Made by a program: the position numbers and the translations under genes | IMG/VR virus record: IMGVR_UViG_3300014158_000003 | Coordinates: 1-64,000 of that record | Length of the DNA stretch: 64,000 bases | Direction: 5' to 3' (one strand) | From: a virus | Notes under the pieces: generated by a model | Told to the model about the DNA's origin: nothing | What the model saw: only the letters and a program-made list of their open reading frames with translations | Databases searched by the model: none | Part shown: positions 30,307 to 61,603 of the stretch, piece after piece | Numbering within the stretch: position 1 is the stretch's first letter | Layout: the number at the start of each line of letters is the position of its first letter

Positions 30307-30342
30307 GCCGGAGAGCGTACGCCAGTTCGGGCGGGTCGTCTA
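30307..30342 (-). promoter_or_regulatory. Leaderless promoter
   Basis: TAGACG-17-TACGCT-7 nt-ATG; identical layout at 30919-30954. Confidence 0.65.
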
Positions 30343-30918: not shown

Positions 30919-30954
30919 GCCGGTTAGCGTACGCCGCTCCGGTCTCAGCGTCTA
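30919..30954 (-). promoter_or_regulatory. Leaderless promoter
   Basis: TAGACG(30954-49)-17-TACGCT(30931-26)-7 nt-ATG. Confidence 0.65.
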
Positions 30955-39953: not shown

Positions 39954-41066
39954 GTGCGCACCTACGTTGTCAAGCCCGGTGATTCGCCTGCCAGCATCGC
40001 CGCAAGAGACGAAATGGCGGGCTGTCCAAAGTGCGGGGCAGATTTGGCGAATCCGGAGGTCAACCCACAAAAAGAAGCTGTTGTTCTCTCGAATGGGTTC
40101 CGCACCTTCAAGTCGCTCACGCCCGGTGAAGTCATCAACTTGCCCGATGCTTGGTTCCACCCGGCCCGCGAGAAGCTGCCGAAGACGTACTACCAGATCC
40201 TGCCGCACCCGGACGGCGTCACGCGCGGCACGCTCGGCGACGCGCTCGGCGACTTCCCCGATCTCGACGCCGCCGTGACCGCGGTCGCCCAGCTCGCGGC
40301 GCTGGGCGACGCCGCGTTCACGCGGGCCGTCGGCGACGCCGGCGCGAAGGTCGACGCCGCTGTGAGGGAGGCGTACCGGTCGACGATCCCCGACGCCGCC
40401 GCCAAGGCGAGGCTCGTCAAGGACGCGACGCACTGGGTCTGGCTGCGCAACGTCGACCTCGCGGCCGCCATCGCCGCGGGCGACCGGGCGACCATCGTGA
40501 AGGCGCGCCTGGACATCCAGAACGCGCTCGCGACGGCGCTCGGCAACGCGCGGCTCGCGATCCTCGCGCTCGCGCCGGGCGGTACGTCCGTCGTGTCGCC
40601 GTCCTCCGCGCCGCCTGAGCTGCTCGCGGCCGCGAGGGCGGCCGCCGCCGCCATCGCGTCCGACCCCAACTACTGCACGTCGGTCACGCACCCCGGCACG
40701 CCGGTCAACGCCGCGGTGCACCGCTTTAAGCTCGCGTGGAACGCGACGCAGACGCCGAAGGTCCCCATCGGCACGAGCGCCTACGAGGTCGCGACGACCG
40801 TCGCGCTCGCGCAGGTGAACGGCAGCGCGCCGTCGGCGTGCGGCGCGGGTCGACGCCCGATGCCCGCACCGCCGCCGCCGCCACCGCTCACGCCCAAGCA
40901 GAAGGCAGAGCAGGAGAAGGCGCTCGCGCCGCCGAGCGAGGGCGGCTGGTCGCTGGGCAAGGTCGCCATCGGCGTCGCCGTCGCGGGCGCGGCGGCCGGC
41001 GGCATCGCGTACCTGGTGACGAGGCCGAAGAAGTCAGTGCGTCGAACGAGTCCGGGGTACGCATGA
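39954..41066 (+). CDS. LysM + peptidoglycan-binding-like protein with C-terminal TM anchor
   Basis: TYVVKPGDSPASIA...LTPGEVINLP; VHRFKLAWN...; C-terminal VAIGVAVAGAAAGGIAYLV; promoter TGGACG-17-TAGGCT 6 nt before GTG. Confidence 0.75.
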   Translation: MRTYVVKPGDSPASIAARDEMAGCPKCGADLANPEVNPQKEAVVLSNGFRTFKSLTPGEVINLPDAWFHPAREKLPKTYYQILPHPDGVTRGTLGDALGDFPDLDAAVTAVAQLAALGDAAFTRAVGDAGAKVDAAVREAYRSTIPDAAAKARLVKDATHWVWLRNVDLAAAIAAGDRATIVKARLDIQNALATALGNARLAILALAPGGTSVVSPSSAPPELLAAARAAAAAIASDPNYCTSVTHPGTPVNAAVHRFKLAWNATQTPKVPIGTSAYEVATTVALAQVNGSAPSACGAGRRPMPAPPPPPPLTPKQKAEQEKALAPPSEGGWSLGKVAIGVAVAGAAAGGIAYLVTRPKKSVRRTSPGYA

Positions 41067-41737
41067 TCATCGTAGACAAGCCCGTGGAAGGCGTAAAAAC
41101 CGACGCACGCATGCACCCTGCCGGTCGAGAGGGATCGCTCCTATCGCTCAAGGAAGTCGCCGAGCGCTCGTGGAAGAGTCGGATGTCTCCGCGCTTGCGC
41201 GCGTGGACGACGCAGAAGCTCGCCGAGGTGGGCGTGTCGACCGGATCGCGCCGACAGAAGGGTCAGGCGGTCCTCGACGCGTTTCGTAAGAAGGTGCCGT
41301 ACGTCGCTGACCCGGTGCTCGGCGAGTTCATGGAGACTCCAGAGCAGACCCTCTGCTTGGACGAGGGAGGTCTCTGCTTCATCGGCACCGACTGCGACGG
41401 CGCAGCCATCACACTCGCAGCCGCGATGATGTCGATCGGGATCCCAGCGATGATCGTCGGCTCGTCGCACAAGCACCCGTACGACGTCCCGACGCACGTC
41501 TTCATGGCGTTCCAGGACGAGCAGGGCGACTGGGTCCGCATGGACGGCACGACCAAGCACCCGGTCGGGCGCGTCGGCAAGCACGAGCGCGAATTTTGGG
41601 TGGAGCCGGGCGCGGAGGCGAAGGATCGCGGCGAGGGCGACTTTGTCGGCATGGCGGGCGGCAGCGAGGTCGGCGTCGGGTCGGCGCGCGTGCTCGCCGT
41701 GAGCACGCTCGACCTGCTCTACCCGTCGTTCAAGTAA
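41063..41737 (+). CDS. Transglutaminase-like cysteine enzyme (putative protease)
   Basis: YVADP, DCDG..ITLAA, THVF, WVRMDGT: Cys-His-Asp triad. Confidence 0.8.
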   Translation: MIIVDKPVEGVKTDARMHPAGREGSLLSLKEVAERSWKSRMSPRLRAWTTQKLAEVGVSTGSRRQKGQAVLDAFRKKVPYVADPVLGEFMETPEQTLCLDEGGLCFIGTDCDGAAITLAAAMMSIGIPAMIVGSSHKHPYDVPTHVFMAFQDEQGDWVRMDGTTKHPVGRVGKHEREFWVEPGAEAKDRGEGDFVGMAGGSEVGVGSARVLAVSTLDLLYPSFK

Positions 41738-41763
41738 CTCGCGCGACGCAGCGTCGCATCGTC

Positions 41764-41866
41764 GCTTGCAACCGTTGCATCCGCGGCTTGCAACCGTTGC
41801 ATCGATGCTTGCAACCGGCGTGCTCCTGTTGCATCCGTGCCTTGCAACTGGATGCTCCCGTTGCAC
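41764..41866. repeat. Array of TGCAAC/TGCATC half-sites
   Basis: GCTTGCAACCGTTGCATC at 41764 and 41786, partial third copy at 41807, further TTGCA cores to 41865. Confidence 0.8.
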
Positions 41867-42203
41867 ACCTCCGAGCGCCGACAATCCGAACTAAGGACTA
41901 CCCGGGACATACCGGAGTATTCTGTTTACGGACTGCGCATCGCGCGCGCGATCGAAATCCGAAGAGTCGATCGCGCGCCGCGCACTGACCTCTCGGTCGC
42001 GTCGCGAAGCGGCGACACGTCACGCCGGTAAGTTCACGACTTCACGGCTGTTTTTCCTGAACTCACGCGCCGCACCACCGCGCGGAGATCGGCCTCGTCA
42101 GCACTGCAATCTGCACGCGAAAATTCGAGTCGATCGCGCGCGATCGACCAAAACTGTTTGACGCATCCAGAGCGCATTGTGAGCCTTCTTCTACGTTGAA
42201 GAC

Positions 42204-45200
42204 ATGGGTCTCTACGCGCACCGCCTCGCCGAACTCTCCGCTGCGCGCGAGCGCGCCGGACGGCGCGCACCGGTGCGCCCGAGTGGACCTACAGACCGCC
42301 GCCGCCCGTACGCGCCGCCGCGCCGCGACAGCCGCGCCGCGCCGCGCCGGCACGACGTGCGCATCGGCACCGTCATCCCGAGCACCTACGTCCCGCCTCC
42401 CCCGCCACCGCCGGACACCTACGTCGAGGCCAAGCGCAAGTCTGCGATGCAGACCCAGTCGCTGCTCTTCAGTCGCGCCGACGGCTGGACCGAGAGCAAG
42501 GCGAAAGAGTGGGCGAAGGAGCACGGGTACAAGTCGAACAAGGTGGACGTCACCGACCAGTACATCCGCCTGCGCCAACTCGACCCGAAGAAATTCACTG
42601 TCAAGCGGACAGTTCCGTTTGGCAAGGGCATCCGCGCCGTAGTCGCTCGTGAGGAACCAATGCCGACCAAGAAGAAGAAGTCGACCCGTCGTCCCGCAGC
42701 CAAGCGCACCGCCGCCAAGCGCAAGCCCGCGCCGCGCAAGCACGCGGTGAAGCCCAAGTCGGCTCCGAAGCGGTCGGCCGCGCGCAAGCGCTCCAAGAAG
42801 GCGACGGTCGTCGCCGCGCGCCGGCGCCCGCGCATGGCCCGCGAGGTCGGTCGGGTCGTGGCCGCGAAGCGGCGCCCGGCGCGCCGCGTGCGCGAGGTCC
42901 GGGCGGCCGCCGAGGCGCGCCGGCGCAAACCTCGCGTGCGCGAGGTCCCGGTGGTCGCCGAGGCGAAGCGCAAGCCGGCCAGCTACGTGATGGCCAAGCG
43001 CCGCCCCGCGCCCAAGCGCCACCGGGCCGCCAAGCACAAGGTGCAGGCGTGGTTCGGCGACAGCGCGGGTCACAGCAAGGCCGCGAAGAAGGGCTGGAAG
43101 ACGCGCAAGGGCCACAAGGCCAGCAAGGTGACCCGCAAGGCCGCCGAGTCGCGCCGCCGCCCGAAGAAGCACCACCGCGTCCGCGAGACGATGACCGTCC
43201 AGGCGCGCCGGCGCCCGAAGAAGCACCACCGCGCCCGCGAGACGATGACCGTCCAGGCGCGTCGTCGCCCGAAGAAGCACCACCGCGCCCGCGAGACGAT
43301 GACCGTCCAGGCACGCCGCCGTCCGAAGAAGCACCACCTCGCCCGCGAGGCGTCGTCGGTGGTCCGCTCGAAGGCGCGCCGCAGCTACGTCCGCGCGCCG
43401 AGCATGCGCAGCATCGGGCGATCGGCGCTCGACATGGGACTCGAGCTCGGGCTCGGGGGCGCCGGCTACCTGCTCGCCGACGGCGTCGACCGCTTCCTCG
43501 CGACCTACGACCCGGCCAACGCGGCCAAGGCCGGCCCGAACAAGTTCACCTCGGACGGCACGGGCATGCTGGGCAACTCGCTCAACGTCGCCTCGGCGCC
43601 CGACTGGAAGCGCTACGCCAGCCTCGTCGGGCTGACGCTCATGCCGCTCGGCGGCTCGCTCTTCATCGAGAACAAGACGATCCGCTCCTCGGTGGAGGGG
43701 ATCGGTCTCGGCGCCGGCATCAAGCTGGCGACGACGCTCTGGGAGAGCCTGCTGATGCCGCTGCTCGTCGGCAAGGACACGAGCGCGCCAGCCCTGCAGA
43801 AGAGCTGGGTCGCGCGCCTGTACCCCGCCGAGGTCTCGGCGGCCCTCAACGAGAAGGCCGGGAAGGCCGCGGTCTCGAGCGGCGGCGCCAACAGCACGGC
43901 CGGCACGCTCTCGGGCGGCGCCGATCGCGATGCGGGCCCGTTCGCGCTCGCCGGTCGCTTCGACCACGGTCGCGGCGGTCGCGAGTGGGTGAGGCCCAAC
44001 CAGTGGCAGATGCCGGACGTGCCGGTGTACGACCCGAACGCGGTCGTCGTCGATCCGGACGCGGTCCCGGTCGCCGTCCAGCCGGCGTGGCCCGCGCACT
44101 TCGGCGAGCGGCACCGCTGGGGCCTGCGCGGCGTCGGCGACGCGGTGCAGGACGTGGCGCAGACCATCGCGGCGCAGACCGGCGTGCACCCGGCGCACGC
44201 CGTCAACGCGGCGATGCACGTGGCCGGCGAGCCGCACGACATCACGCAGGCGCTCCGACGCGCGCTGCCGCACATCCGCCGCGAGATCCTGGCCGAGTGT
44301 GCCCGGCACGTGCACCCGCACGTGGTCCGGATGCACGGCCACGCCCGCCACCCGCGCGAGCACGCCGAGTGGGAGGGCGAGCGGGCTGCCGAGGGCTTCC
44401 CGCCGCCCGCGCACGACGCACCGGAGCATGAGTGGCGCGAGTGGCACGGCAAGCGCGCGGCCGCGGACCTGCCCGCGGCTCCGCCCCCGCCCGAGCCGCC
44501 GGCCGCTGCCCCACGGACGCCGGAGCACCTGCGCACTCGGAGTGAGTGGCAGCCGAAGTCCGACCGCACGATCACCTTCGAACGGTTCGCGACCACCCAG
44601 CAGGCGCTGGGGATCGGCGGACCGGGAGGCCCCGCCGCGAGCGGCTACCCGGGCCAGCCGGGTCTCGGCTGCCTCGGCGACGCCTTCGCCGACGCAGCGC
44701 AGAGCGCGGCGGCCACCATCCCGGACATGCCGCTCGAGAACGCGGTCAACGTGGCGGCCCACGCGGCGACCGAGCCGTTCAGCTGCGACCGAGCGATCGA
44801 GCGCGCGATGCCGTTCGTCCGCCGCGAGCTCACCCGAGCCTGCGCGGAGAACATGACCCCGTACATCCGCCAGTTGACCGGGATCCCGCTCCCGCCCGAG
44901 GCTGCGGCCCCGCCGCCTCCGCCGCCGGGCGCGCCCGAGCTGCCCGCGCCGCCGGCGCCGCCGGTCATCGAGTTCGTGCCGTCGCCGCCTCCGCCGAGCT
45001 GGACCCGCTCGGAGGCGGAGTGGCACGACGAGGAGCGTCGCAACTGGGACCGCACGCACGGCGGTCACGCCGTCGTGGCGGCCGCGACGCACGCGGCCGA
45101 GGCTGCGGCCGCACCGCACCCCGACGCGCAGAAGCCCGCCGTGCAGGCGGCCGTGCACGCCATCGCCGACAAGGCCGCGCAGGCGGCATCCGCGGCGCCT

Positions 45201-45542
45201 CCCGGCACGCCTCCGGCGGAGGTCCACGCCGCTGCCCACGAGGCTGCGAAGGTGGAGGCCGCCGAGCACCCGGCGGTCGCTGCGCACCCGGCCGTCAAGG
45301 CCGCCGTCGCAGCGGCGCCGCCCGCAGCGGCGCACGCCGTCGCTGCGCAAGCGGCGCCGGTGGCCGGCGTCCACGGAGTCGGCAACCCGCCCCGCAACCT
45401 GCCGGTCGGGCCGCCCAAGATCGGCAAGTCCGGCCCGCGCGTGCCCCAGCACGAGTCGGAGTGCGGCTGCCTCGACGACAGCCCGTACCTCGGCTTCGTC
45501 GGCGACGAAGTCGAAGAGGACCAGCTGTTCACCCTGAGCTGA
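42204..45542 (+). CDS. 1112-aa histone-H1-like/membrane/His-Pro-rich protein (putative core/scaffold polyprotein)
   Basis: K/R-rich region, hydrophobic helices, duplicated helical domain; TACGTT 6 nt before ATG. Confidence 0.8.
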   Translation: MGLYAHRLAELSAARERAGRRAPVRPSGPTDRRRPYAPPRRDSRAAPRRHDVRIGTVIPSTYVPPPPPPPDTYVEAKRKSAMQTQSLLFSRADGWTESKAKEWAKEHGYKSNKVDVTDQYIRLRQLDPKKFTVKRTVPFGKGIRAVVAREEPMPTKKKKSTRRPAAKRTAAKRKPAPRKHAVKPKSAPKRSAARKRSKKATVVAARRRPRMAREVGRVVAAKRRPARRVREVRAAAEARRRKPRVREVPVVAEAKRKPASYVMAKRRPAPKRHRAAKHKVQAWFGDSAGHSKAAKKGWKTRKGHKASKVTRKAAESRRRPKKHHRVRETMTVQARRRPKKHHRARETMTVQARRRPKKHHRARETMTVQARRRPKKHHLAREASSVVRSKARRSYVRAPSMRSIGRSALDMGLELGLGGAGYLLADGVDRFLATYDPANAAKAGPNKFTSDGTGMLGNSLNVASAPDWKRYASLVGLTLMPLGGSLFIENKTIRSSVEGIGLGAGIKLATTLWESLLMPLLVGKDTSAPALQKSWVARLYPAEVSAALNEKAGKAAVSSGGANSTAGTLSGGADRDAGPFALAGRFDHGRGGREWVRPNQWQMPDVPVYDPNAVVVDPDAVPVAVQPAWPAHFGERHRWGLRGVGDAVQDVAQTIAAQTGVHPAHAVNAAMHVAGEPHDITQALRRALPHIRREILAECARHVHPHVVRMHGHARHPREHAEWEGERAAEGFPPPAHDAPEHEWREWHGKRAAADLPAAPPPPEPPAAAPRTPEHLRTRSEWQPKSDRTITFERFATTQQALGIGGPGGPAASGYPGQPGLGCLGDAFADAAQSAAATIPDMPLENAVNVAAHAATEPFSCDRAIERAMPFVRRELTRACAENMTPYIRQLTGIPLPPEAAAPPPPPPGAPELPAPPAPPVIEFVPSPPPPSWTRSEAEWHDEERRNWDRTHGGHAVVAAATHAAEAAAAPHPDAQKPAVQAAVHAIADKAAQAASAAPPGTPPAEVHAAAHEAAKVEAAEHPAVAAHPAVKAAVAAAPPAAAHAVAAQAAPVAGVHGVGNPPRNLPVGPPKIGKSGPRVPQHESECGCLDDSPYLGFVGDEVEEDQLFTLS
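43152..43349 (+). repeat. 54-bp coding tandem repeat (RRRPKKHHRARETMTVQA x3.7)
   Basis: Directly visible. Confidence 0.9.
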
Positions 45543-45640
45543 GAAGCTCGCAAAAAACCAACGACCCCTAGCGAAGAAGCAACAACCAACTCCCCGCGGC
45601 GGACCAAGGAAACGGCGGGGAAGCGAAAGAGAGAACGACC

Positions 45641-46936
45641 ATGGCGAGGAACGTGAGCGGTTTGAGCAAGAAGTCGATCAAGTACGGCGGCGAGAGCCGC
45701 GAGAAGGTCCAGCGGGTGCCGTTCGGCCTGGGCGCCCCGCCCGGCGACGAGGCGGCCGCCCAGAAGTGCCTGCGCTGCGGGTTCGGCAACGTGCCCGTGG
45801 TCGAGGAGGTGGTCTGGACGATCCCGCTGCCGCTGACCAGCGAGCAGGCGACCACGACCTTCGGCGACACGGTCAACCCGCTCAGCGGGTCCTCCGCGGT
45901 CCCCGGCGTCGCGTCGATCGACTCGACGTTCCTCATCAACGGCATCCTGCAGACCGACATCCTGACCCAGGGCATCGGCGTGCACGTGTTCTGCGAGCCG
46001 ACGTCGTTCTCCACGATCGGCAACGCCTGGTCGGCGCCGTCGACCACCACCGCTCCGCCGCCGTCTCCCGACGTGTTCACGGTCAACGACATCACCAACG
46101 GCGCGATGGGTGGACTCGTCGCGGAGGACCTCGCCTCCTTCTCTCCCGCCGTCTTCGAGTGGGGCGCGGCGACCTGGCGCGCGGGATGGAACTTCATCAA
46201 CGCGTATCAATTTCAATGGAAAACGTCGCAGCGTGAGCTCGTGCTCAACGAACTCGCCGCGGACATCAGCTACTTCGGGTCCTTCGCGGACGCCGAGGCG
46301 AGCGGCACGAGCGAGCTGCCGGTCATCGAGTTCGTGGCGCTGGTCAACGCGCAGTACCGCGCGCAGGACTCCGCGACGATCTTCCTGCCGGTCAACTTCC
46401 GGCGCGTCGGCAGCGTGACGGGCGCGTTCCCGTACGTCACCGGCGACAACCTCGGCATCTTCCACCCGACGCGCGACTTCGACCTCGCGCCGGTCACCTG
46501 GGGTGGCCTCAGGTGGCAGGGGTACGGCTGCCGCGGTCAGATGTACCGGCAGATCGAGTCGCCCTGCTTCCTCGAGCGCGGTATCCCCATCGGGATGATC
46601 TTCATTGCGCAAGACGCGGTCCATCAAGCCCAGATGATCGAGGCGCTCACGATCGACAACGAGCCGTTCGGCACGAACGTCGTGCCGGACGTGAACGTCA
46701 GCGACACCACCCTCACGTCCACCGACGTGGGTCCCGGCGCGCTGCCGGTCATGCTGGAGCAGACGCTCGACGCGACCCCGGTCAGCGTCTCGCAGTCGGT
46801 CAACGTCAACCGCCAGATCTTCAAGGGCGGCATCTTCAAGCTCGGCATCAAGATCAAGGGCTGGGAGATGCCCGGCGGGTGGAAGAGCTACTGCGCGGAG
46901 AAGGGCATCCGCGGGATGCACCACGCGGGCGCCTGA
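45641..46936 (+). CDS. Candidate major capsid protein
   Basis: 431 aa, beta-rich, strong codon bias, followed by intrinsic terminator, in structural context; fold not verified. Confidence 0.5.
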   Translation: MARNVSGLSKKSIKYGGESREKVQRVPFGLGAPPGDEAAAQKCLRCGFGNVPVVEEVVWTIPLPLTSEQATTTFGDTVNPLSGSSAVPGVASIDSTFLINGILQTDILTQGIGVHVFCEPTSFSTIGNAWSAPSTTTAPPPSPDVFTVNDITNGAMGGLVAEDLASFSPAVFEWGAATWRAGWNFINAYQFQWKTSQRELVLNELAADISYFGSFADAEASGTSELPVIEFVALVNAQYRAQDSATIFLPVNFRRVGSVTGAFPYVTGDNLGIFHPTRDFDLAPVTWGGLRWQGYGCRGQMYRQIESPCFLERGIPIGMIFIAQDAVHQAQMIEALTIDNEPFGTNVVPDVNVSDTTLTSTDVGPGALPVMLEQTLDATPVSVSQSVNVNRQIFKGGIFKLGIKIKGWEMPGGWKSYCAEKGIRGMHHAGA

Positions 46937-46967
46937 AGCGCGGAGACGCGCTTGAGCGCCTGAACCA

Positions 46968-47009
46968 GGGCGGCGTGGCGGGATGCGCCGCGCCGCCCTT
47001 TCGTTTTTT
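46968..47009 (+). terminator. Rho-independent terminator
   Basis: Stem GGGCGGCGTGGCG / CGCCGCGCCGCCC followed by TTTCGTTTTTT. Confidence 0.85.
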
Positions 47010-47029
47010 GAGATACTCTGGAGGAGCGA

Positions 47030-47629
47030 ATGCAGCCGAAAAGCGAGAACGTCCGGGACCTGGCGATTTGGGCGCCGAAGATCGCCTACGCGATGGTGGT
47101 CGGGGTCCCGCGCGTCCCGTTCGTCGTCGACATCCCGATCCAGTTCACGTCGAGCGTCGTCGATGCGCCGTACATCGAGGCGAGCTTCGACAACAACCTC
47201 ACGCAGGACACGCTTGTCGAGAAGATCGCGTTCACGCTCTTCCAGCAGAACTCGTTTCCTGGGAGCCCGTTCCAGAGCCTGTACTTCAACCAGTTGAAGG
47301 GGCAGACGGGCGTCGGCGTGAAGTTCGATGTCTACGGGGCGCCCCGCTACAGCGTGCAGGACACACCGATCGACCTCGCGAACATGGCCGACGTCCTGGC
47401 CGTCACGTGGCCCAACGGCTGGCCGCTCCCGAAGCAGTCGAACGTCAAAGTGTCGGCCGTCCTGTTCCAGACGCCGGTGAGCGTACCTTTCGACGTCAAC
47501 ATAACTTTCCTCGGTTGGAGTGCGTTGGACGCGGAAATTGACTCACTCTCGGACGACGATGCGCGCTGCCGGCTGCGCAAGCTCGGATTCGAGGTCCCGG
47601 ACCTGGAAGTTCTTCTGACCAGGCCGTGA
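47030..47629 (+). CDS. Beta-rich protein, candidate second/minor capsid protein
   Basis: GGAGG RBS; alternating hydrophobic strands; follows the candidate MCP. Confidence 0.5.
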   Translation: MQPKSENVRDLAIWAPKIAYAMVVGVPRVPFVVDIPIQFTSSVVDAPYIEASFDNNLTQDTLVEKIAFTLFQQNSFPGSPFQSLYFNQLKGQTGVGVKFDVYGAPRYSVQDTPIDLANMADVLAVTWPNGWPLPKQSNVKVSAVLFQTPVSVPFDVNITFLGWSALDAEIDSLSDDDARCRLRKLGFEVPDLEVLLTRP

Positions 47630-48714
47630 CTACTCGATTCACCTTCTACTGCCACACCAACCGGGTGAACGGCAAACAATACGTCGGCCAAACAGCCTGG
47701 ACGATGGAGGAGCGTTGGAAATCGCACGTCACGTCAGCGAAACTACATCAGGGCTGTCGGGTATTCGGGGCGGCCATTCGCAAGTACGGCCCGGACGCGT
47801 TCGATCACGAGATCCTCGAAGTCGTCGTCTGCACGCAGCAAGAGGCTGACCTCATTGAGACGGAATGGATCAAGCGAAAAGGAAGTCGTGTACCGTTCGG
47901 GTACAACCTTACGGCTGGCGGCGGTAGCCACGGTCTCCTCCACGAGGACTCCAAGCGTTTGATAGGAGAAGCGTCGAGAAAACGCTTGGCTGGCATGACG
48001 CCGGAGCAGCGAACGGAGTTCTTCAAAAAGAACATTCACATCTACACGCCGGAACGTTTGGCGCGTCATGCGGAGCGGTTTCGATCCAAAGAACACCGCG
48101 AGAAGGTGACAGCCGACCAGAAATACTTTTGGTCGAAGCTATCGCCCGAAGAGAGGCTCGCTCGCGCTAAGCATATGCACGCTGGCATTTCGGAAGAAAA
48201 GAAACACGAGCGCACGCGCAAAGCGTGGGCCAAACTGACACCAGAAAAGCGCGCAGAACGCATCCGAAACGCCAGCGAGGCCAACGTTCGGGCGTGGAGT
48301 CCAGAGAGATCGAAGAAGAGGAGCGAGGCGCAGTCTGCAAGACACGCAGCGATTCCGCCTGAACAGCGTCGCGAGGTCGTCAACAAGGCGTGGGTCACTC
48401 GTCGCGCGAAATACGGGCAGAGCGGCATGAAGAACCCAGCACCAGCCCGAAGTGGTTACGTCAAGCTGACTCCGGAGGAACTGTCAAAACGCCGCAGAAA
48501 AAGTTGGGCGAACATGACGCCGGAAGCCTACGACGAGCGGGTACGCAAGACTCGGGAAGGCAAACGGCTGGCGCGTCTGGCGAAGTCCGGTCAGCAGCTC
48601 GACGCCGAACTCGTCCCCTTCGTCCGCCACTGGCACAAGCGCGGCCACTCGATCCGGTCGATCGCCCTCGCCTTCGACGTGTCCACCAATGAGATCGAGA
48701 GGGCGGTGGCCTGA
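47626..48714 (+). CDS. GIY-YIG homing endonuclease
   Basis: TFYCHTNRVNGKQYVGQT..R, AIRKYG, E..WI, GYNLTAGG; TPEQR repeats; C-terminal HTH; lower GC. Confidence 0.85.
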   Translation: MTTRFTFYCHTNRVNGKQYVGQTAWTMEERWKSHVTSAKLHQGCRVFGAAIRKYGPDAFDHEILEVVVCTQQEADLIETEWIKRKGSRVPFGYNLTAGGGSHGLLHEDSKRLIGEASRKRLAGMTPEQRTEFFKKNIHIYTPERLARHAERFRSKEHREKVTADQKYFWSKLSPEERLARAKHMHAGISEEKKHERTRKAWAKLTPEKRAERIRNASEANVRAWSPERSKKRSEAQSARHAAIPPEQRREVVNKAWVTRRAKYGQSGMKNPAPARSGYVKLTPEELSKRRRKSWANMTPEAYDERVRKTREGKRLARLAKSGQQLDAELVPFVRHWHKRGHSIRSIALAFDVSTNEIERAVA

Positions 48715-50943: not shown

Positions 50944-50952
50944 CGGGGACCC

Positions 50953-51834: not shown

Positions 51835-52154
51835 ACCGCTCCGGCAAGTCCAGCCTCTCCGCGTTCAAGTGCCCGCTGTGCGGGTGCTCGGAGTGGGGAT
51901 CCAGCTACAACTTCGACGGGCCCGGCGACACGCCGGCCGACCCGAAGGCGACGGGGCTCGACCAGGGCGGCCGGTCGGCGCGGTTCGAGGGGACGTTCAC
52001 GCGGCACTGCCACGGCTACGTCCCCGCTCCCGACGGCAGCGGCTACAAGTCGTGCGGCTACAAGTGGAACTCGAAGGACGACGCGAAGCACGGGGTCGAG
52101 CCGCCGTCGCAGAAGAGCGTGCACGGCTGGACGCCGCCGAAGGTGCCGTCGTGA
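51831..52154 (+). CDS. Zn-ribbon-like small protein
   Basis: CPLCG ... CHG ... SCGYKW. Confidence 0.6.
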   Translation: MNRSGKSSLSAFKCPLCGCSEWGSSYNFDGPGDTPADPKATGLDQGGRSARFEGTFTRHCHGYVPAPDGSGYKSCGYKWNSKDDAKHGVEPPSQKSVHGWTPPKVPS

Positions 52155-53203
52155 GTCGCGAGCCCGCCCACCAGCGACCGGGCGCGCGCGTCCGGTACAA
52201 CTACACGGACGGCCCGGTCCCCGCGGGCACGTTGGGTACGATCCTCGGGTTTCTGCCGCGGAGCCAGCAGGCTCAGATCCGGTGGGACGACGACACCGTC
52301 AACAACCACACGCCCGACGAGTACGACGTGGTCCCGCGCGGGACGAGGCGACCGATTGGTGAAGCGCAAGACGTTCTCGCCGCCAAATATTTCGAACGCG
52401 GTGCTCGACTGCGTATCCGCAGCAAGGGGGCAAACGGGCAACCGTTCGAGGCGTTCTGGTTCTTGGTTCCGTCTGAGATGACTCCTGAGGAGGTTGCACT
52501 GCAGTTCGCGCAGACCGTGCAACCAGGCATGCTCCTCGAGATCGAGGAAGGCGGCGGTGTGAAGCGGACATTTCGGCAGAACGGTGACGGAACAGTCACG
52601 CCCGTACCGAACGTCTCTGGGCGCCTTCGGGAGATAGGTGAGTCACGCCGCCAGACGAAGTGGTCCGACTGGGACATCCTCGACGCCGTCGAGCGCCGCC
52701 ACGGGATGACGCCCGAGGCGAAAGCCCGCGCCTTCGAACTCATCGACCTCGGGTACATCGACGCGGCGGGGACGTGGGAGCTCACGCCCAGAGGGCGTCG
52801 CGCCTGGGAGCGCGACGCGCCGAAGGGTGGGTGGTCGAACAGGCACCAGCAGGCGCCCCGACTCGAAGCGCGTCGACAGATGCGCCGGCAAACCGTTCAC
52901 GCGGCACCCACTAGCGGCTGGACCTCCGGCAAGCGACCGAGCCACGCCGAGATCTGGGCGGACGGCAAGCCGATCACCGTCGCTAAATCCGGGCGCAAGT
53001 GGACGGTCACCGTCATGGGCCGACCCGTCGTCAACGGCGCGTCCGGCGGGCTCACGTTCGAGGGTCGCTCGGACTACGTCGACGGCCTCACACAGGCGAG
53101 GTTCAACAGCAAGGGCGACGCCGACTCCGTCGCGCACAAGATCGGCCGGTACATGCTCAACCTCGGTGACTTCGTCCACACGTACGTGGAGCACGTCGGA
53201 TGA
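52151..53203 (+). CDS. Multidomain hypothetical protein with basic linkers
   Basis: GTG at 52151; SH3-like N-terminus; several short domains. Confidence 0.6.
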   Translation: MSREPAHQRPGARVRYNYTDGPVPAGTLGTILGFLPRSQQAQIRWDDDTVNNHTPDEYDVVPRGTRRPIGEAQDVLAAKYFERGARLRIRSKGANGQPFEAFWFLVPSEMTPEEVALQFAQTVQPGMLLEIEEGGGVKRTFRQNGDGTVTPVPNVSGRLREIGESRRQTKWSDWDILDAVERRHGMTPEAKARAFELIDLGYIDAAGTWELTPRGRRAWERDAPKGGWSNRHQQAPRLEARRQMRRQTVHAAPTSGWTSGKRPSHAEIWADGKPITVAKSGRKWTVTVMGRPVVNGASGGLTFEGRSDYVDGLTQARFNSKGDADSVAHKIGRYMLNLGDFVHTYVEHVG

Positions 53204-53517
53204 CCGAGTCCGTCTCCCGCGGCGGCCGCCCGGCGCCAGGCTTCGCCCTGGGCGACGCGTCGCCCGCGTGCGCCGCGTGCCCCGCGGCGCTGCCGTCCGG
53301 GTCGAGCGCGGCGGCCCTGCTCGGCGGCGACTGGCGCGCGCTGCCGCTGGCCGTCGGGCACACGGCCCTGCGCGCGACGCTCGTCGGCGCGGGTCTCTAC
53401 CTCGCCGGCGAGCGCGATCCCAAGCGCCTGGTCAAGAACGCGGCGGCCGGCTCGCTCGCGATTGAGGCGTTCGTGCTCGGGTGGGCGGCTTGGAAGCTGA
53501 GGCATAGCGCGCCCTAG
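53200..53517 (+). CDS. Tagged small membrane protein
   Basis: MTESVSRGGRPAPGFALGD tag; hydrophobic helices. Confidence 0.7.
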   Translation: MTESVSRGGRPAPGFALGDASPACAACPAALPSGSSAAALLGGDWRALPLAVGHTALRATLVGAGLYLAGERDPKRLVKNAAAGSLAIEAFVLGWAAWKLRHSAP

Positions 53518-53541
53518 CGACTTGTACGGTAAGCTGCGCCG

Positions 53542-56511
<2,970 letters not shown>

Positions 56512-56515
56512 AGCG

Positions 56516-57841
56516 GTGACCTCTCCCGCAGTCGTCCAGTCGGCCGTCATCAACGCGGCTGGGCCGCCGATGACGGCGAACTTCTCGCTCGCGCAGACCG
56601 CCGGCAACTGGAACATCGTCGTCAGCGGCCCCCCGGGAGGGCAGAGTACCGGCATCCCGACGGACACCAGCGGCAACACCTACGAGCTGGCGGTCGTGAA
56701 CCTCGCTACCGCGGGGCAGTGCCAGGACGCGTACGTCTACGTCTGCAAGGGCATCAAGGCCGCCGGCGCCGGCGCCAACACCGTCTCGATCCCGTACGCC
56801 CCCGGCGGCGGGGGGGCCCCGCCCGACTGTCTGATCCTGGAGGTCAGCGGGGCCGCCGGCATCGGTGCTATCGCGGGCGCTGGTCAGAACAACAGCGGCG
56901 GCGGCTCCGTCTCGGTCTCGCTGACGACGCTGGCCTCTAGCTCGCTGGTGCTCGCCTGCGGGATGAGTGACAACGGGTGGGTCAGCGTCTCGGGATCATT
57001 TACCGAGGTGGCGCTCACGCCGGACACGTACGGTGGTGTCTGGCAGGACTCGGTCTCGACGCCGTCGACGGTCACGTGCAGCCTCACGCAGTCGGCCGGG
57101 TCGTGGTGCATCGCGGCGATCGAGCTGACGTCGGTCGCGCAGCCGGCGAGACCGTCGCCCGTACAGCAGATCAACGGGACCGGGCTATCGCAGACATTTT
57201 ACTCCGCGCAGAACGCCGGCGACTCGAACCTCTTCGTCGTGCAGCTCGGGGCGACGAGCACGCCCACGATCACGGTCGCGGACGACGCGAACGGCGCGTA
57301 CGACACCGCTTCGGCGCTCGAGTACAACCCGGCGAGCGGCCTGTACTTCCAGTTTTTCTGGTACCCGAACACCGCCGCCGCCGCCGCGGGAACGAACACC
57401 GTCACGGCCACCGTCACGGGCGGCGGCACGCTGTCCAACGAGTACACGTACGCGATCGAGGTCGCGGGCCTCGCGACGACGGGGACCTTCTACACCTCGG
57501 GGCAGACGTCGCAGAAGACGACGGCGTCCGGTTACACGCCGCCGGCCACCTCGGGCTCGTACGCGACCGCGAGCGCGTACCAATTCGCGCTCGCTTGGTT
57601 CTACAGCACGGGCGACGACATGCAGCAGGGCGCCGAGAGCAACTTGATCGGGTACCTGCCGAACGGCGGAGTAGCGGCCAATGGGCTCGAGTACCAGATC
57701 ACGGGGGCGAGCGGGTCGACTGTCCAAGCGACCGCCACCTTCCAGAGTTCGGCCGACGCGGTCTACGCGCAGATCGCCGGTTTCAACGCGGCGCCCGCGA
57801 CGACGACCTTCGACGCCGTCGGCTTTGGCGCCGAGGTCTGA
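56516..57841 (+). CDS. Beta-rich virion surface protein with two similar domains
   Basis: AQTAGN/AQNAGD, AAGAGANTV/AAAAGTNTV, LEVSG/IEVAG duplicated motifs. Confidence 0.7.
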   Translation: MTSPAVVQSAVINAAGPPMTANFSLAQTAGNWNIVVSGPPGGQSTGIPTDTSGNTYELAVVNLATAGQCQDAYVYVCKGIKAAGAGANTVSIPYAPGGGGAPPDCLILEVSGAAGIGAIAGAGQNNSGGGSVSVSLTTLASSSLVLACGMSDNGWVSVSGSFTEVALTPDTYGGVWQDSVSTPSTVTCSLTQSAGSWCIAAIELTSVAQPARPSPVQQINGTGLSQTFYSAQNAGDSNLFVVQLGATSTPTITVADDANGAYDTASALEYNPASGLYFQFFWYPNTAAAAAGTNTVTATVTGGGTLSNEYTYAIEVAGLATTGTFYTSGQTSQKTTASGYTPPATSGSYATASAYQFALAWFYSTGDDMQQGAESNLIGYLPNGGVAANGLEYQITGASGSTVQATATFQSSADAVYAQIAGFNAAPATTTFDAVGFGAEV

Positions 57842-57916
57842 AATTTTGGCCGCGGGAGACTCGATGTTCGGCTCTCCTGATAGCGCCGAGCACCGCTTGA
57901 CGTAGGCTCGTACCCT

Positions 57917-58882
57917 GTGGCGCGCCCCGGCCTGTTCGACACCGACGGCGTCCCGTGGGGCTGGTTCGACACCTGCGGCCAGGACCAGGGCTGGTTCGAC
58001 CGCGACCTGCTCACGTACCCGGCCGCCGTACCGCCGCCACCACCCCCGCCGAAACCGCGTCCGCGTCCGCGCCCAGTCGCCGGGGGCGGCGGCGGCGGGG
58101 GCGTCATCGTCCCATACTGCCCGCCCGACTGGCTGAAGCTCTTCTACACGGACCCGGACGCCCTGCCGGTCGAGTGCGACGACGAGCCGACCGAGATCGG
58201 GGCGGAAGCGGAGACCGACTACGCCCTGCTGTACCTGCCGGGCGGCGCCCGAGGGTCCCCCGTCCGCGCGCTCGCCTCCGGCGTCGTCGAGCGGGTCGTG
58301 GACAGCCGGGGGCGCACGGCGGTCGTGCTGACGGCCGCCGACGGCACGCGGTACTGGTACGCGGACCTCGGCCGCGTCGACGTCGCGCACGGCGCCCGCG
58401 TCGAGGTCGACCAGGTCATCGCGCGGACCAAGCCGGGCGCGCGGCCCATCCCGACGGTGGTCCCCGCGCCGGCGGCGCCCGCGGATCCGGCGAGCGCGCC
58501 CGCGCAGTCGCCGGTCGGCGCCCTGCCGGCCGGCCCCCCGAGTCCGGCGCCGAGACTGAAGCCGGCGCAGGTGGTGTTCGTCGAGGCCCCGCCGCCGGCC
58601 GAGGAGCCGAGCCGCCCACGCGTCGAGCCGCCTGCAGGACCGACCCGGCCCCCGGTCCAGCCCGGGGCCGTGGTGTGGATGCTCCTGCCGAAGCCCGGGA
58701 CCCAGCCGGAGCCTCCCCCGGCGCCGGCGGTCCGCGCGACCCCGATCCGCGACGCGATCCTGAGTCTGAGCCTCGTCGCCGCGCTGCTCTCCGCGGCCTA
58801 CTTGCTGGACCGCAGGGCGAAGGCGTCGCGGCAGAAGAGGGGGCGGAGGCGCAAGGGGCGCCCGGGTCGCCGGCGGTCGTGA
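57917..58882 (+). CDS. Degenerate M23 peptidase-like protein with C-terminal TM
   Basis: GSPVRALASGVV...GTRYWYADL..VDVAHGARVEVDQVIA; metal-binding His absent. Confidence 0.65.
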   Translation: MARPGLFDTDGVPWGWFDTCGQDQGWFDRDLLTYPAAVPPPPPPPKPRPRPRPVAGGGGGGGVIVPYCPPDWLKLFYTDPDALPVECDDEPTEIGAEAETDYALLYLPGGARGSPVRALASGVVERVVDSRGRTAVVLTAADGTRYWYADLGRVDVAHGARVEVDQVIARTKPGARPIPTVVPAPAAPADPASAPAQSPVGALPAGPPSPAPRLKPAQVVFVEAPPPAEEPSRPRVEPPAGPTRPPVQPGAVVWMLLPKPGTQPEPPPAPAVRATPIRDAILSLSLVAALLSAAYLLDRRAKASRQKRGRRRKGRPGRRRS

Positions 58883-58949
58883 GGCGCGGGGAAAAGCAGC
58901 GGTCACCGGAGCCGGAAGCTGGTAGGATCCCCGAAAAGGAGCGGCGCCC

Positions 58950-59267
58950 ATGGAGCACATCGTCAGAAACGGTCGCCCGGTCAGGTTCGGCCTGGGCGGC
59001 GTCAGTGACGCGGCGGCGCTCGCGCCCGTCTCCCAGAGAGTCGCCGCGAAGATCGCGTCCGTGGCGGTCGGCGCGCTGACGGTCGGCGTGCTCGGGACCA
59101 TGGTCGGGGCGGGCATCTCGCTCCTGGACACCAAGAAGCTGCGCCCCGCCACGGTGGGGCAGGGCGCGGCGGTGGGCGCCGCGCTCGGCGGCGCGATGGG
59201 CCTGTTCACGGAGGTGAGCGTCCGCACCGTCCCCGCTGCGGACGCGAAGGGCGGAGTGTCGACATGA
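58950..59267 (+). CDS. Tagged 2-TM membrane protein
   Basis: MEHIVRNGRPVRFGLG tag; AGGAG RBS. Confidence 0.75.
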   Translation: MEHIVRNGRPVRFGLGGVSDAAALAPVSQRVAAKIASVAVGALTVGVLGTMVGAGISLLDTKKLRPATVGQGAAVGAALGGAMGLFTEVSVRTVPAADAKGGVST

Positions 59268-61603
59268 GGAAGCACCTGATCGGGGCCGGTGAGAGCATCT
59301 CCAGGAACGGGCAGTCGGTCGGCCTGGGCCTCGCGTGCTGGCCGCGCGAGTGGGAGCCCGACCCCGGCGGCGGCCGGGTCGGCGACGTCGGCGTGGGCTT
59401 CCACTTCGACGTCGGCCACCTGATCAAGGGCGCGCTCAAGGACGTGGGCAAGGTCGCCTCCGCCCCGGTGCACATCGCGGTCGAGGCGGTGAAGGACCCG
59501 AAGAAGCTGATCCACGACATCGGCCACGTGGCCAAGGACGTGGTCAAGATCGAGAAGTTCGTGCTCGAACAGGCCGCGGGGATCTGCTCGCTCGTCCCCG
59601 GCCTCGGCACCGCGATCTCGACCGCCATCGCCGCCGGGCTCGCGGTGCTCGAGGGCGGCGGCGTGCTCGAGATCGCGATCAAGATCGCCTACGGCGCCAT
59701 CCCGATCCCGCCCGGCATCAAGACCTTCACGGACCTGGTGCTCGGGGCCGTGCTCGACATCGTGAGCGCGATCCTCAAGGAGGGCACCAACCTCGGCAAG
59801 GTTTTGGAGCGCCTCATCGCCGAGGAGATGGCCAAGGCGCTGCCGGACAACGTCCGGGCCGCGGGCACCACCATGCTCACCGCCCTCACGCCGACGGTGC
59901 TGCAGGCGCTGACCGGCAAGCTGCCCGGCCTGCCGTCGGCCTCGTCGGTCGCGTCGGCGGCGGGGCTACCGGCCGTCCCGTCGGTCTCCTCGATCGCGGC
60001 GGCGCTGCCGACGCCGTCGGTCCCGGGCGTCACCGGGGTCGGCGACAAGGTCGACGACTTCGTGGCCCAGCTGAAAGCGCAGTACGCGGCGATGAACTTG
60101 CCGGCGAGCGTCAAGTCGCAGACCGACCCGGTCTTCAACGCGCTCGTCTCGATGGTCCACTCGATGAACGTGGGCCCCGCGATCCTCCTGACCGTGCGCA
60201 CCGGGATCACCTCGAAGCTGCCCGCCGGCGTCGCGCGCGACGTGGGCCTGCACGTCTTCGACACGCTCGCGCACCTCATCCTGGGCAAGCTGTTCAAGGG
60301 CAAGCCGACGCAGGCCACCGTGACCACCGCGCTCACCCCGGCGCAGCTCACCGCCGTGCACCTCGCGGCCGCTCGCGGCGCGCCGCTGCCGGCGAGTGTC
60401 ACGCCGATCCCGCCGACGGTGGCCGCGTACAAGCCGATCGCCAAGGCCGAGGTGGCGCAGAGCACCGTCGTCTCGGTCCCGGTCATCGCGGTCGACAGCA
60501 GCCCCTACGGGCCCTACCCGCAGCCGAGCGCCGGCGCGACCCCGTCGACCGCGGCGCCCGCGATGGCGCCGCCGCCCGTGCCTGCTGTGAGTGCGTCGAC
60601 GCCGGCGACCGCCGCTGCCGCGCCCATGTCGACGCCGGCGGCCACGTCCCCAGCCGGCACGACCGCGGGCGTCGGCGAGAGCAGCTGCCCGCAGGAGCCG
60701 GTCCCGAGCGGCTGGCGCGTGTGGCAGGGTCCCGTGCCGCCCGAGCTCGTGCAGTTGGCCGTCGAGGTGCGCGACCACGTCCGGCAGTACCCGCGCGGCA
60801 CGATCGCCAAGACGGTCGACTACCGGGGATCCGCGGTCGCCGCCTTCGTGAGCAGCCACACGTGGACGTACCGCAACGGCCAGCTCGTCACCGGGATCTG
60901 CATCCCCGGCGTGTCGCTGCTGGTCCGGCCGACCGCGGACGTCGGCACCAGTCGCGGCGGCGGCGGTGGTGGTGGACGCGGCGGGGGTGGTGGTCGTGGC
61001 GGTGGCGGCGGTGGGGGGCACCCCGGGCGCCCGGGAGGGCGCGGTGGTTTCGACGGGTGGGCAGGCGGCCGGGGGCGCCCGTGGGGTCGGGGCGGCTACG
61101 GCTGGGGGTGGGGCGGCGCGTGGTGGCCGTACGTCGTCGTCACCAGCGACGCCGCGTGCGCGAGCTGGGGTGACCCGATCAGCTTCCCGGCGAAGCTGCT
61201 GTCGGCCGCGCGCGCGACGCTCACCGACTCGGGCTGGGCCCCGGTCGTCGTCCGCGGCTCGGACGGTGGGCTCTACCTGCTCAGCCTCGAGCCCGGCGTG
61301 CCGACGGGGGGGCCGGTCGCGCAGCTCGTCACGATCCGCCCGTGCGTCTCGGTGGGGGTCGGCGACGCGAACGACGACGTCCTCAAGGCGATGGCACTCG
61401 ATCTGCTCGGCCAACTGCAGCGCAGCGTACCGCAGGGCGCGACGCGCGCGGTGAAGAACTTCGCGCAGGCGTGGAACGCCGCGAGCGCCGACTCACAGAT
61501 CGACACCAGCGGCAAGTACACGCAGGAGACCGCGGCGGCGCTCAACGCGGCTTTGAGCGCGCTCGCGCCTGGATCAGGGTCGGCGCCGGCGGCCGTGCTC
61601 TAG
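59264..61603 (+). CDS. Tagged multidomain protein (amphipathic helices, RGG tract, PG-binding-like C-terminus)
   Basis: ESISRNGQSVGLGL tag; domains separated by GVG(D/E). Confidence 0.75.
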   Translation: MRKHLIGAGESISRNGQSVGLGLACWPREWEPDPGGGRVGDVGVGFHFDVGHLIKGALKDVGKVASAPVHIAVEAVKDPKKLIHDIGHVAKDVVKIEKFVLEQAAGICSLVPGLGTAISTAIAAGLAVLEGGGVLEIAIKIAYGAIPIPPGIKTFTDLVLGAVLDIVSAILKEGTNLGKVLERLIAEEMAKALPDNVRAAGTTMLTALTPTVLQALTGKLPGLPSASSVASAAGLPAVPSVSSIAAALPTPSVPGVTGVGDKVDDFVAQLKAQYAAMNLPASVKSQTDPVFNALVSMVHSMNVGPAILLTVRTGITSKLPAGVARDVGLHVFDTLAHLILGKLFKGKPTQATVTTALTPAQLTAVHLAAARGAPLPASVTPIPPTVAAYKPIAKAEVAQSTVVSVPVIAVDSSPYGPYPQPSAGATPSTAAPAMAPPPVPAVSASTPATAAAAPMSTPAATSPAGTTAGVGESSCPQEPVPSGWRVWQGPVPPELVQLAVEVRDHVRQYPRGTIAKTVDYRGSAVAAFVSSHTWTYRNGQLVTGICIPGVSLLVRPTADVGTSRGGGGGGGRGGGGGRGGGGGGGHPGRPGGRGGFDGWAGGRGRPWGRGGYGWGWGGAWWPYVVVTSDAACASWGDPISFPAKLLSAARATLTDSGWAPVVVRGSDGGLYLLSLEPGVPTGGPVAQLVTIRPCVSVGVGDANDDVLKAMALDLLGQLQRSVPQGATRAVKNFAQAWNAASADSQIDTSGKYTQETAAALNAALSALAPGSGSAPAAVL

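Follow-up and report, generated by a model that had tools for sequence, protein, structure and literature searches.

A conserved hydrophobic-glycine-hydrophobic-glycine element at N-terminal leaders and module junctions, and a neighbouring transglutaminase-core enzyme, in a lineage of uncultured phages

Why would one short glycine motif recur at the module borders of several large viral proteins, next to the gene of a transglutaminase-like cysteine enzyme? The question is raised by IMG/VR record IMGVR_UViG_3300014158_000003, a phage-like record of 117,319 bp and 69% GC, the first 64 kb of which (positions 1 to 64,000) are here called the window. A first-pass annotation had proposed that G-[VL]-G-D marks domain boundaries in a 1112-aa, a 779-aa and a LysM-like open reading frame (ORF), and that the neighbouring enzyme matures structural polyproteins at these sites. 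Our comparisons show that the conserved core is instead hydrophobic-Gly-hydrophobic-Gly (FGLG, FALG, FGVG, AGVG, VGVG, RGVG) and that its clearest home is an N-terminal leader; the proposed consensus captures the end of this element, with wrongly placed borders. The single most likely reading of these sequences, which we hold tentatively, is that the leaders guide proteins to the particle and are then trimmed by the 224-aa enzyme.

The comparison draws on 29 related loci in IMG/VR (numbered with L), on contigs of up to 125 kb, with five records rated 100% complete. The record studied here is G000 and the relatives cited individually are G001, G003, G004 and G005. The genes that carry the argument are the following.

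39954-41066, plus strand: 370-aa ORF with a LysM-like N-terminal domain bearing a CxxC insert, a helical middle and a C-terminal hydrophobic anchor
41063-41737, plus strand: 224-aa transglutaminase-core Cys-His-Asp enzyme (P0001)
42204-45542, plus strand: 1112-aa multi-module ORF
45641-46936, plus strand: 431-aa candidate capsid protein, whose leader ends in FGLG (45722-45733)
59264-61603, plus strand: 779-aa multi-module ORF (P0002)

The motif instances cited by the first-pass annotation are all present in these ORFs, at the following places.

40230-40253, plus strand: TLGDALGD, aa 93-100 of the 370-aa ORF, after a conserved N-terminal domain ending in ..DGVT
44127-44141, plus strand: RGVGD, aa 642-646 of the 1112-aa ORF
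44667-44681, plus strand: GCLGD, aa 822-826 of the 1112-aa ORF
59375-59398, plus strand: RVGDVGVG, aa 38-45 of the 779-aa ORF
60032-60046, plus strand: TGVGD, aa 257-261 of the 779-aa ORF
60665-60679, plus strand: AGVGE, aa 468-472 of the 779-aa ORF
61352-61366, plus strand: VGVGD, aa 697-701 of the 779-aa ORF

A Gly motif at module boundaries of the 779-aa, 1112-aa and LysM-like proteins does recur and is conserved in part in their orthologues; its Asp is not. At the first site of the 1112-aa protein, five close orthologues read HRWGLRGVG and then D in four and A in one. Two sites are conserved in the 779-aa family: GTTAGVG (kept in 4/4 homologues spanning the region) is followed by E, D, R or N, and RPCV..GVG (3/3 homologues) by D, N or S. 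Among the homologues of the 431-aa protein, the residue after the first motif is Ala in 21, Arg in 8, Gln in 7 and Asp at only 2 of 65 first sites. The orthologue comparison thus leaves Gly-hydrophobic-Gly (G-φ-G) as the stable part, usually with a hydrophobic or small residue before it, while the Asp comes and goes, and the consensus G-[VL]-G-D does not survive in its proposed form. The Asp is retained chiefly ahead of helices, and we therefore read it as a helix N-cap. The claim that the motif marks domain boundaries stands in part: two motifs of the 779-aa protein (aa 258 and 469) and two of the 1112-aa protein (aa 820 and 1058) sit where Pro/Gly/Ser/Thr/Ala-rich linker-like segments end on their C-terminal side, or shortly beyond, and genes of relatives are split at the motif (see below), while other copies of G-[VLMI]-G fall inside hydrophobic segments.

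The leader has the form ME[HS][VI]xR[GN]G[RQ]xxx(G)F[GA][LV]G, about 20 residues closed by the conserved core. A leader profile of our own, trained partly on the window's own copies, finds it on 7 ORFs of the record (E <= 1.2e-5), the 779-aa ORF among them; before three of these ORFs joined the profile, they scored E 1.2e-5 (31577), E 0.011 (30004) and E 15 (30340). In relatives, the leader is found on 6 listed ORFs of G001, one of them doubtful for lack of the FG core, and on 3 ORFs of G005, while the profile found no ORF in G004. The leader-bearing ORFs of the window, other than those listed above, and one ORF that lies among them are as follows.

24386-24610, minus strand: 74-aa ORF, leader ..SRGGRSVAGFALG followed by a hydrophobic helix (E 2.1e-8, a member of the profile training set)
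30004-30306, 30340-30918 and 31577-31972, minus strand: three leader ORFs
30945-31676: ORF with no leader, lying among the three leader ORFs of 30004..31972 (minus strand)
38338-38979, plus strand: 213-aa ORF with a copy of the 431-aa protein's leader
53200-53517, plus strand: 105-aa ORF, leader ..SRGGRPAPGFALGD
58950-59267, plus strand: 105-aa ORF, leader MEHIVRNGRPVRFGLGG followed by a hydrophobic helix

The copy in the 213-aa ORF includes an exact duplication of 35 nt, recovered by tiling exact 25-mers, in which 38463-38497 equals 45685-45719, a part of the leader of the 431-aa protein.

The 431-aa protein shows how deeply the core is conserved. Its leader is a variant, ..REKVQRVPFGLG-APPGD, in which F28 is invariant and G29 and G31 are at least 90% conserved among 25 relatives. 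A search of 1.84 billion representatives retrieved 186 homologues (186 clusters at 50% identity), and alignment A3 comprises 72 of them together with the window's protein (73 in all), with identities down to 20%. At this depth, G29 is kept in 69/72 and G31 in 70/72 aligned residues, two among only 16 near-invariant columns. At least one G-φ-G occurs within the first 70 aa in 65/73 homologues and at least two in 22/73, the density over this stretch being 1.76 per 100 aa vs 0.41 in the remainder, and a linker of variable length comes after the FGLG motif.

The 431-aa protein has no meaningful match in Pfam, PHROGs or the PDB sequences (searched with profiles from alignments A2 and A3), and when every one of the 73 sequences of A3 was compared with PHROGs, a single one matched (E 0.0093). 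The AlphaFold2 (AF2) model from a 25-sequence alignment has a mean predicted local distance difference test score (pLDDT) of 36.7 and is unusable. Atlas features give a weak pointer to small jelly-roll capsids (0.86, a lead only); for the 663-aa ORF they gave nothing. As to whether more distant core proteins occur together with the enzyme, P0160, P0201 and P0140, each used singly as a query, led to no viral contig, and the one metagenome locus (L067) is cut 2.5 kb upstream and has no enzyme in that short span. The enzyme and the 431-aa core protein do occur together on a 5.8-kb contig of a metagenome-assembled genome (MAG) labelled Binatia, while a MAG labelled Polyangiaceae has a 31-residue match only; these labels give no reliable host.

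The 1112-aa protein is composed of a small N-terminal domain, basic repeats, a hydrophobic region, a duplicated helical domain, Ala/Pro/His tracts and a conserved C-terminal tail; the hydrophobic region (aa ~400-590) is the only part conserved across 27 loci. Its sites and domains are located as follows.

43935-43955, plus strand: GPFALAG, a conserved junction after the hydrophobic region
44121-44339, plus strand: helical domain copy 1 (aa 640-712), starting at RGVGD
44661-44882, plus strand: helical domain copy 2 (aa 820-893), starting at GCLGD
45375-45386, plus strand: GVGN, before the conserved C-terminal tail PPRNL..ECGCLDDSPYLGFVGDE

The duplication described by the first-pass annotation is real: the two helical copies are identical at 30 of 74 positions (pairwise E 5e-17), and each begins at its motif. 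At the second site, four close orthologues have PGLGE and the window alone has GCLGD; at a third site, before the tail, 4/5 close orthologues have GVG and then N, F or R. The junction after the hydrophobic region is conserved more widely, with FAL in 14 of the 17 distant orthologues listed and in 5/5 close ones. In these 17 distant orthologues, the hydrophobic core is followed by ..GALSGAP..(GVG or GMG)..DVGPFAL[AS]GDSPYPDAAQALR and then by a Gln-bearing unit, [AT]G[VMI]x(G)DSPYP[DST]AxQALR, in one to four tandem copies. Both helical copies in the window resemble larger forms of this unit.

The N-terminal third of the 1112-aa protein (window 42204-43400) carries, after the small conserved domain, tandem basic repeats ..ARRRPKKHHRARETMTVQ.. 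present about four times, and the orthologues keep long Arg/Lys tracts; this third may be a DNA-condensing part. The tail of the family (window 45489-45539) has the conserved pattern CxC[LIV](G/D)D..(Y/F)LGF[VI]GDE..acidic..L[FY]. The C-terminal end of the enzyme, GDFVGM[SA]G..LDLLYPGIR, is conserved as well and is of low confidence in its AF2 model. These conserved C-terminal peptides could serve as docking motifs.

The LysM-like protein has matches in 26/29 loci. The first-pass annotation placed TLGDALGD after a LysM domain; the motif does follow the conserved N-terminal domain, while the assignment of that domain to LysM falls below the cut-off (Pfam E 0.018, 15.4 bits vs a cut-off of 20.9, covering profile positions 1-15 of 43). 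Among 20 LysM-like orthologues, [LVMI]GD lies at most 18 residues after DGVT in 12 (11 by script and L006 by eye), either [LVMI]GD or G-φ-G is present in 14, and 6 have neither.

In the 779-aa family, the element coincides with the points at which genes are divided. Relatives of this protein were found in the records behind five loci, a pattern scan of viral contigs having given none. Two of its sites are conserved, as described above, while RVGDVGVG is not and TGVGD sits in a module that is swapped among relatives. In G005, the Gly-rich and WWPY..RPC module is a gene of its own, which starts with MDGIGD before the Gly-rich stretch and ends with ..RPCAGFNSY, and the module that follows AGVGE in the window is another gene with a leader-like start ending in VGFAD. 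The G004 homologue ends at RPCAG, where others go on with GVG. In the G003 homologue (L041, ORF from 1558, ~aa 250-480), a different middle module replaces the helical one, with a B_lectin match below the cut-off (E 0.0061). These sequences indicate that modules are swapped between fixed junctions. Because the module genes of G005 start at the element and the G004 homologue ends there, we regard the internal sites as leader-like, and both they and the N-terminal leaders seem to be a single kind of element that precedes a module.

The gene of the 224-aa enzyme lies two genes upstream of that of the 431-aa core protein, and is found in 24/29 loci and in 5/5 near-complete relatives; the other 5 loci have less than 3.3 kb upstream of the match, shorter than in the two shortest positive loci, so that no relative spanning its position lacks it. 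The fold is certainly a transglutaminase-core. Pfam PF01841 matches residues 62-161 just above the cut-off (E 4.5e-5, 24.1 bits vs 23), and the AF2 model has a mean pLDDT of 66.4, with the core (~30-80 and 110-190) mostly above 77 and low-confidence stretches at residues 1-26, 83-102 and 192-224, parts of which are conserved. The best structural matches are spread over several functions: Foldseek retrieved 3isr (E 6e-4) and 4xz7 (E 2.4e-3), with PeiP and PeiW at rows 17 and 20, and VIA gave 3kd4 (Z 11.0, root-mean-square deviation (rmsd) 3.0, 138 aligned) and 3isr (Z 9.8), both deposited as putative proteases, together with factor XIII (Z 10.0, rmsd 4.0, 150 aligned), PNGase (Z 9.5), LapG (Z 8.1, rmsd 3.9, 129 aligned), PeiP (Z 8.6) and PeiW (Z 8.0); factor XIII and transglutaminases 2 and 3 lie at Z 8.8-10.0.

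The intact, transglutaminase-like Cys-His-Asp triad noticed in the first-pass annotation is borne out by the orthologues. C111 (41393-41395), H145 (41495-41497) and D161 (41543-41545) are invariant in 17/17 aligned orthologues of 54-88% identity, as are C98 and C105; we read the three as the catalytic residues from their positions in the Pfam-matched core rather than from a superposition. The family itself is already known: 386 database proteins match the enzyme, each of ~215-245 aa among the 120 listed, 42 of these 120 carry a precomputed PF01841 mark, and some homologues bear the JGI label 'transglutaminase-like putative cysteine protease'. Neither Pfam nor the PDB sequences place the enzyme by sequence among the bacterial transglutaminase-like cysteine proteinases (BTLCP) of LapG type, and its fold differs from the assemblin-like or ClpP-like serine folds of known prohead proteases.

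Further evidence on the importance of the enzyme comes from an insertion of 324-328 aa, in frame and directly before the catalytic Cys, in 5/24 loci; the window's copy lacks it. The insertion starts with CFPEGTLL, finishes with DVTVSN before a Cys, and has LAGLIDADG-like motifs, the marks of an intein, with weak Pfam matches below the cut-offs (Hint E 0.007, Hom_end_hint 0.041, LAGLIDADG_3 0.059). It is located as follows.

L031, 6585-7568, in an enzyme orthologue at 6261-7901
L019, 6535-7515
L015, 6604-7575
L021, 6610-7587
L009, 2-~730 (partial)

Inteins are usually placed at conserved active sites of proteins that their bearer cannot lose. Since this one sits at the catalytic Cys, the enzyme is probably indispensable to these phages.

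These observations could be joined as follows. The hydrophobic-G-hydrophobic-G element would be both the recognition and the cut site of the adjacent transglutaminase-fold enzyme, which would act as the particle-maturation protease of this phage lineage; proteins would be carried to the particle under assembly by their leaders, which would afterwards be trimmed off, and multi-module proteins would be split into modules at internal copies of the element. The fuller claim, that widespread uncultured high-GC phages of 110-125 kb have a transglutaminase-fold capsid-maturation protease, with leaders on at least 8 unrelated proteins including the capsid protein and with polyproteins that are split, is possible and at present doubtful. 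In favour of trimming by the 224-aa enzyme, the other protease-like genes are not family-wide: a ClpP-like SDH-type protease was matched in 0/5 complete relatives, an empty answer that shows little in this search, and a weak subtilase-like ORF in 3/5.

Large phages and several eukaryotic DNA viruses assemble their particles by leader-guided delivery and subsequent proteolytic trimming, for which few protease folds are known. The maturation proteases of T4 and of giant phages are serine enzymes of assemblin-like fold, with sites ending in Glu. To our knowledge, no maturation protease of transglutaminase fold has been described in any virus, and the main texts of a limited literature collection gave no link between a transglutaminase-like enzyme and particle maturation. 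PMC9026906 describes for T4 that proteins are directed to the head by leaders, which the phage protease afterwards removes, and that many head proteins, the capsid protein included, are trimmed; PMC5694885 and PMC7411985 deal with propeptide processing in giant phages of the phiKZ/SPN3US type. As in T4, a short N-terminal peptide is common here to otherwise unrelated proteins of the candidate particle module. Unlike T4 gp21, the candidate protease is a transglutaminase-fold Cys enzyme and its site would be hydrophobic-G-hydrophobic-G; several of the leader-bearing proteins here also have hydrophobic helices, unlike those of T4.

LapG, with a Cys-His-Asp triad on a transglutaminase-like fold, offers a precedent for the chemistry. 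It is periplasmic and trims one adhesin, and its calcium dependence is indicated by PDB titles. PMC3032545 describes it as a site-specific endoprotease that cuts LapA between Ala108 and Ala109, in a stretch of small residues. Unlike LapG, the phage enzyme has no export signal or N-terminal hydrophobic stretch visible by eye, and it lacks the sequence-level membership mentioned above. PeiP and PeiW, from viruses of methanogens, are like the enzyme virus-encoded and of the same fold, with the difference that they are pseudomurein endoisopeptidases by their PDB titles, not enzymes of virion proteins, and have no sequence similarity to it at the thresholds used.

A further likeness is to adenoviruses, asfarviruses and poxviruses, in which a virion Cys protease cuts structural precursors at short Gly sites and a basic core protein adjoins the capsid gene. 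The adenovirus protease cuts at (M/I/L)XGX-G or (M/I/L)XGG-X, and the core polyproteins of asfarviruses and poxviruses are cut at GG-X and AG-X. These systems differ from the present one in their protease fold, and their consensus does not fit: a cut after the second Gly here would leave a hydrophobic preceding residue, not Gly, while with a cut ahead of the second Gly the residue four places back would be a variable one (K, Q, E). The cargo-loading peptides of encapsulins are likewise short Gly/hydrophobic peptides that direct unrelated cargo into a virus-like shell; unlike the leaders here, they usually lie at the C terminus, and they are uncleaved.

Several observations weigh against a maturation protease that cuts at the element, and they concern each of its parts. 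The transglutaminase-core fold cannot tell a protease from a transamidase, an N-glycanase or a cell-wall isopeptidase; a profile of the 17 enzyme orthologues gave 0 hits among PDB sequences at E <= 1, LapG included, and Pfam gives Transglut_core alone (E <= 0.01), so that neither search assigns it to a characterised protease family. A role at the cell wall would suit the enzyme equally, its gene being translationally coupled to that of the LysM-like protein with its membrane anchor. The 431-aa protein is a capsid protein by our inference, as is the view that the 36-64 kb block builds the particle (a 'morphogenesis module'): the scanned ORFs, which included all those of at least 400 aa except the Cas12-like ORF 78411-80468, gave no match to a terminase, portal, tail tape-measure or known capsid family. 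Because the family-library scans covered ~60 of ~114 called ORFs, a canonical protease may also have been missed. Finally, G-[VLMI]-G occurs within hydrophobic, membrane-like segments, where cutting is unlikely: in the 1112-aa ORF at aa 416, 499 and 501, and in the 779-aa ORF at aa 113. The motif counts add a further objection, which leads to the question of chance.

A genome of 69% GC favours Gly, Val, Leu, Ala and Asp, and GTC-GGC-GAC, found at 6/8 [VL]GD sites, are favoured codons, for which reason their recurrence speaks neither for nor against recombination microhomology at the motif. The strict G[VL]GD occurs 4 times in the 18,256 aa of 61 ORFs of the window vs 1.37 after shuffling (29/500 shuffles reach this count); between 36 and 64 kb, it occurs 3 times vs 0.60 expected, reached by 8/400 shuffles, a weak enrichment. 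It is not enriched in relatives, with 2 vs 1.40 in G001, 2 vs 1.43 in G005 and 1 vs 0.62 in G004, counts that rest on crude ORF calls based on G+C at third codon positions (GC3), poor for G004 (59% GC, 55 ORFs). Nor is plain G[VLMI]G enriched genome-wide in G000 (47 vs 47.4), and single instances such as RVGDVGVG and TGVGD can be explained by composition. In contrast, [FYW][GA][VLMI]G is enriched in G000 (14 vs 6.84, 2/200 shuffles); because the looser motifs were picked post hoc, their shuffle counts overstate significance. Against a meaningless motif there also stand its positional conservation over deep divergence, the leader common to unrelated ORFs and the gene fission at the motif. For the core element chance is refuted, the element as a whole being beyond chance, and we consider composition very unlikely as a general account.

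An element that is real and uncut, with an enzyme unrelated to it, is a possibility to be taken seriously, if itself somewhat doubtful. It would be a flexible hinge, or an assembly or targeting peptide binding shell, scaffold or membrane, with the Asp capping a helix. The pattern of GD followed by an acidic residue and, four to five positions on, a hydrophobic one occurs 6 times between 36 and 64 kb vs 0.99 expected (0/400 shuffles), a pattern picked post hoc which fits a helix N-cap, and the Asp is lost where the following module is not helical. Tandem copies, in 22/73 N-terminal arms of the 431-aa family and in the G005 homologue of the 779-aa protein, fit binding avidity at least as well as serial cutting, and linkers are needed at module junctions whether cut or not. 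However, a pure hinge would not require two near-invariant Gly with hydrophobic neighbours in 73 diverged homologues, and a common leader on unrelated proteins, with a small-residue end and beside a conserved Cys-His-Asp enzyme, is the pattern of leader-removing systems. Alternatively, the enzyme could be a peptidoglycan cross-bridge isopeptidase acting in entry or lysis with the LysM-like protein, the motif being unrelated. The overlap of 4 nt between the stop of the LysM-like ORF and the start of the enzyme gene (41063-41066), the same fold in the virus-encoded PeiP and PeiW, and other wall-directed parts in the block, notably a Peptidase_M23 ORF (57917-58882), are consistent with this, as are the C-terminal ~85 aa of the 779-aa protein, which resemble a wall-binding domain by eye only (best Pfam match weak, DUF6861, E 0.0042). 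Nevertheless, we consider it unlikely: the enzyme has no wall-binding domain of its own nor a visible N-terminal hydrophobic stretch, the LysM assignment is under threshold, and the enzyme is conserved like the two adjacent core proteins, whereas phage lysins usually vary between relatives. Somewhat less probable still is a true transglutaminase that would cross-link the Gln of the repeat unit after the motif in the 1112-aa family to a Lys of another particle protein. The Gln-bearing tandem units of the distant orthologues, the ..DVAQ.. and ..DAAQ.. kept by the window's copies and the match to factor XIII and transglutaminases 2 and 3 would suit such an activity, but the leaders of the small ORFs have no conserved Gln in common, no Lys-rich acceptor was identified, and most of the matched bacterial proteins that share the fold and have a known activity are hydrolases (LapG, PeiP, PeiW) or were deposited as putative proteases (3kd4, 3isr).

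If leader-guided delivery and trimming by the 224-aa enzyme is the true reading, the transglutaminase-fold enzyme would be a new class of maturation protease, and the leader/junction motif a readable address label with which to list the particle proteins of this lineage. The lineage is common in metagenomes, as seen from the 386 enzyme homologues and the 186 core-protein clusters, and its presumed structural genes have no match in Pfam, PHROGs or solved structures. Should no cutting take place, two results would still hold: unrelated proteins carry a conserved address-like peptide, and modules are shuffled at this element.

The lineage is uncultured: neither the 431-aa ORF nor the enzyme has a match among 50,697 phage genome records. 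Beyond the window, the record encodes a UvrD helicase, a Dam methylase, a PD-(D/E)XK nuclease and AAA_24, which are phage-type replication genes, and a tyrosine integrase. From ~36 kb to 64 kb, the likely genes are nearly all on the plus strand and almost no ORF has a Pfam or PHROGs match; the exceptions are the Transglut_core enzyme, the Peptidase_M23 ORF, a GIY-YIG homing endonuclease and two collagen-repeat ORFs. Further features of the record lie as follows.

47626-48714: free-standing GIY-YIG homing endonuclease, between the 199-aa and 315-aa ORFs, the two most conserved genes
53542-56511 and 61625-62677: collagen-triple-helix repeat ORFs (Pfam E 4.2e-22 and 2.7e-17)
62679-63506: concanavalin-like lectin ORF, weak (E 0.0025)
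72171-73172 of G000 (L001 8171-9172): ClpP-like SDH-type serine protease (Pfam E 4e-11), adjoining a transposase ORF of insertion-sequence type

The collagen-repeat and lectin-like ORFs could be fibres. The GIY-YIG gene is found in only 6/29 related loci and its GC3 (0.70) is lower than that of its neighbours. The ClpP-like protease is probably a recent acquisition, because its GC3 is lower and none of the five complete relatives gave a match to it. Finally, a 693-aa ORF (G000 81125-83206, minus strand) matches phrog_1735, of unknown function, at E 8.7e-226; its homologues are 43-46% identical among the 15 listed of 529 tailed-phage records, from many hosts, and it is one of the few links from this lineage to cultured phages.

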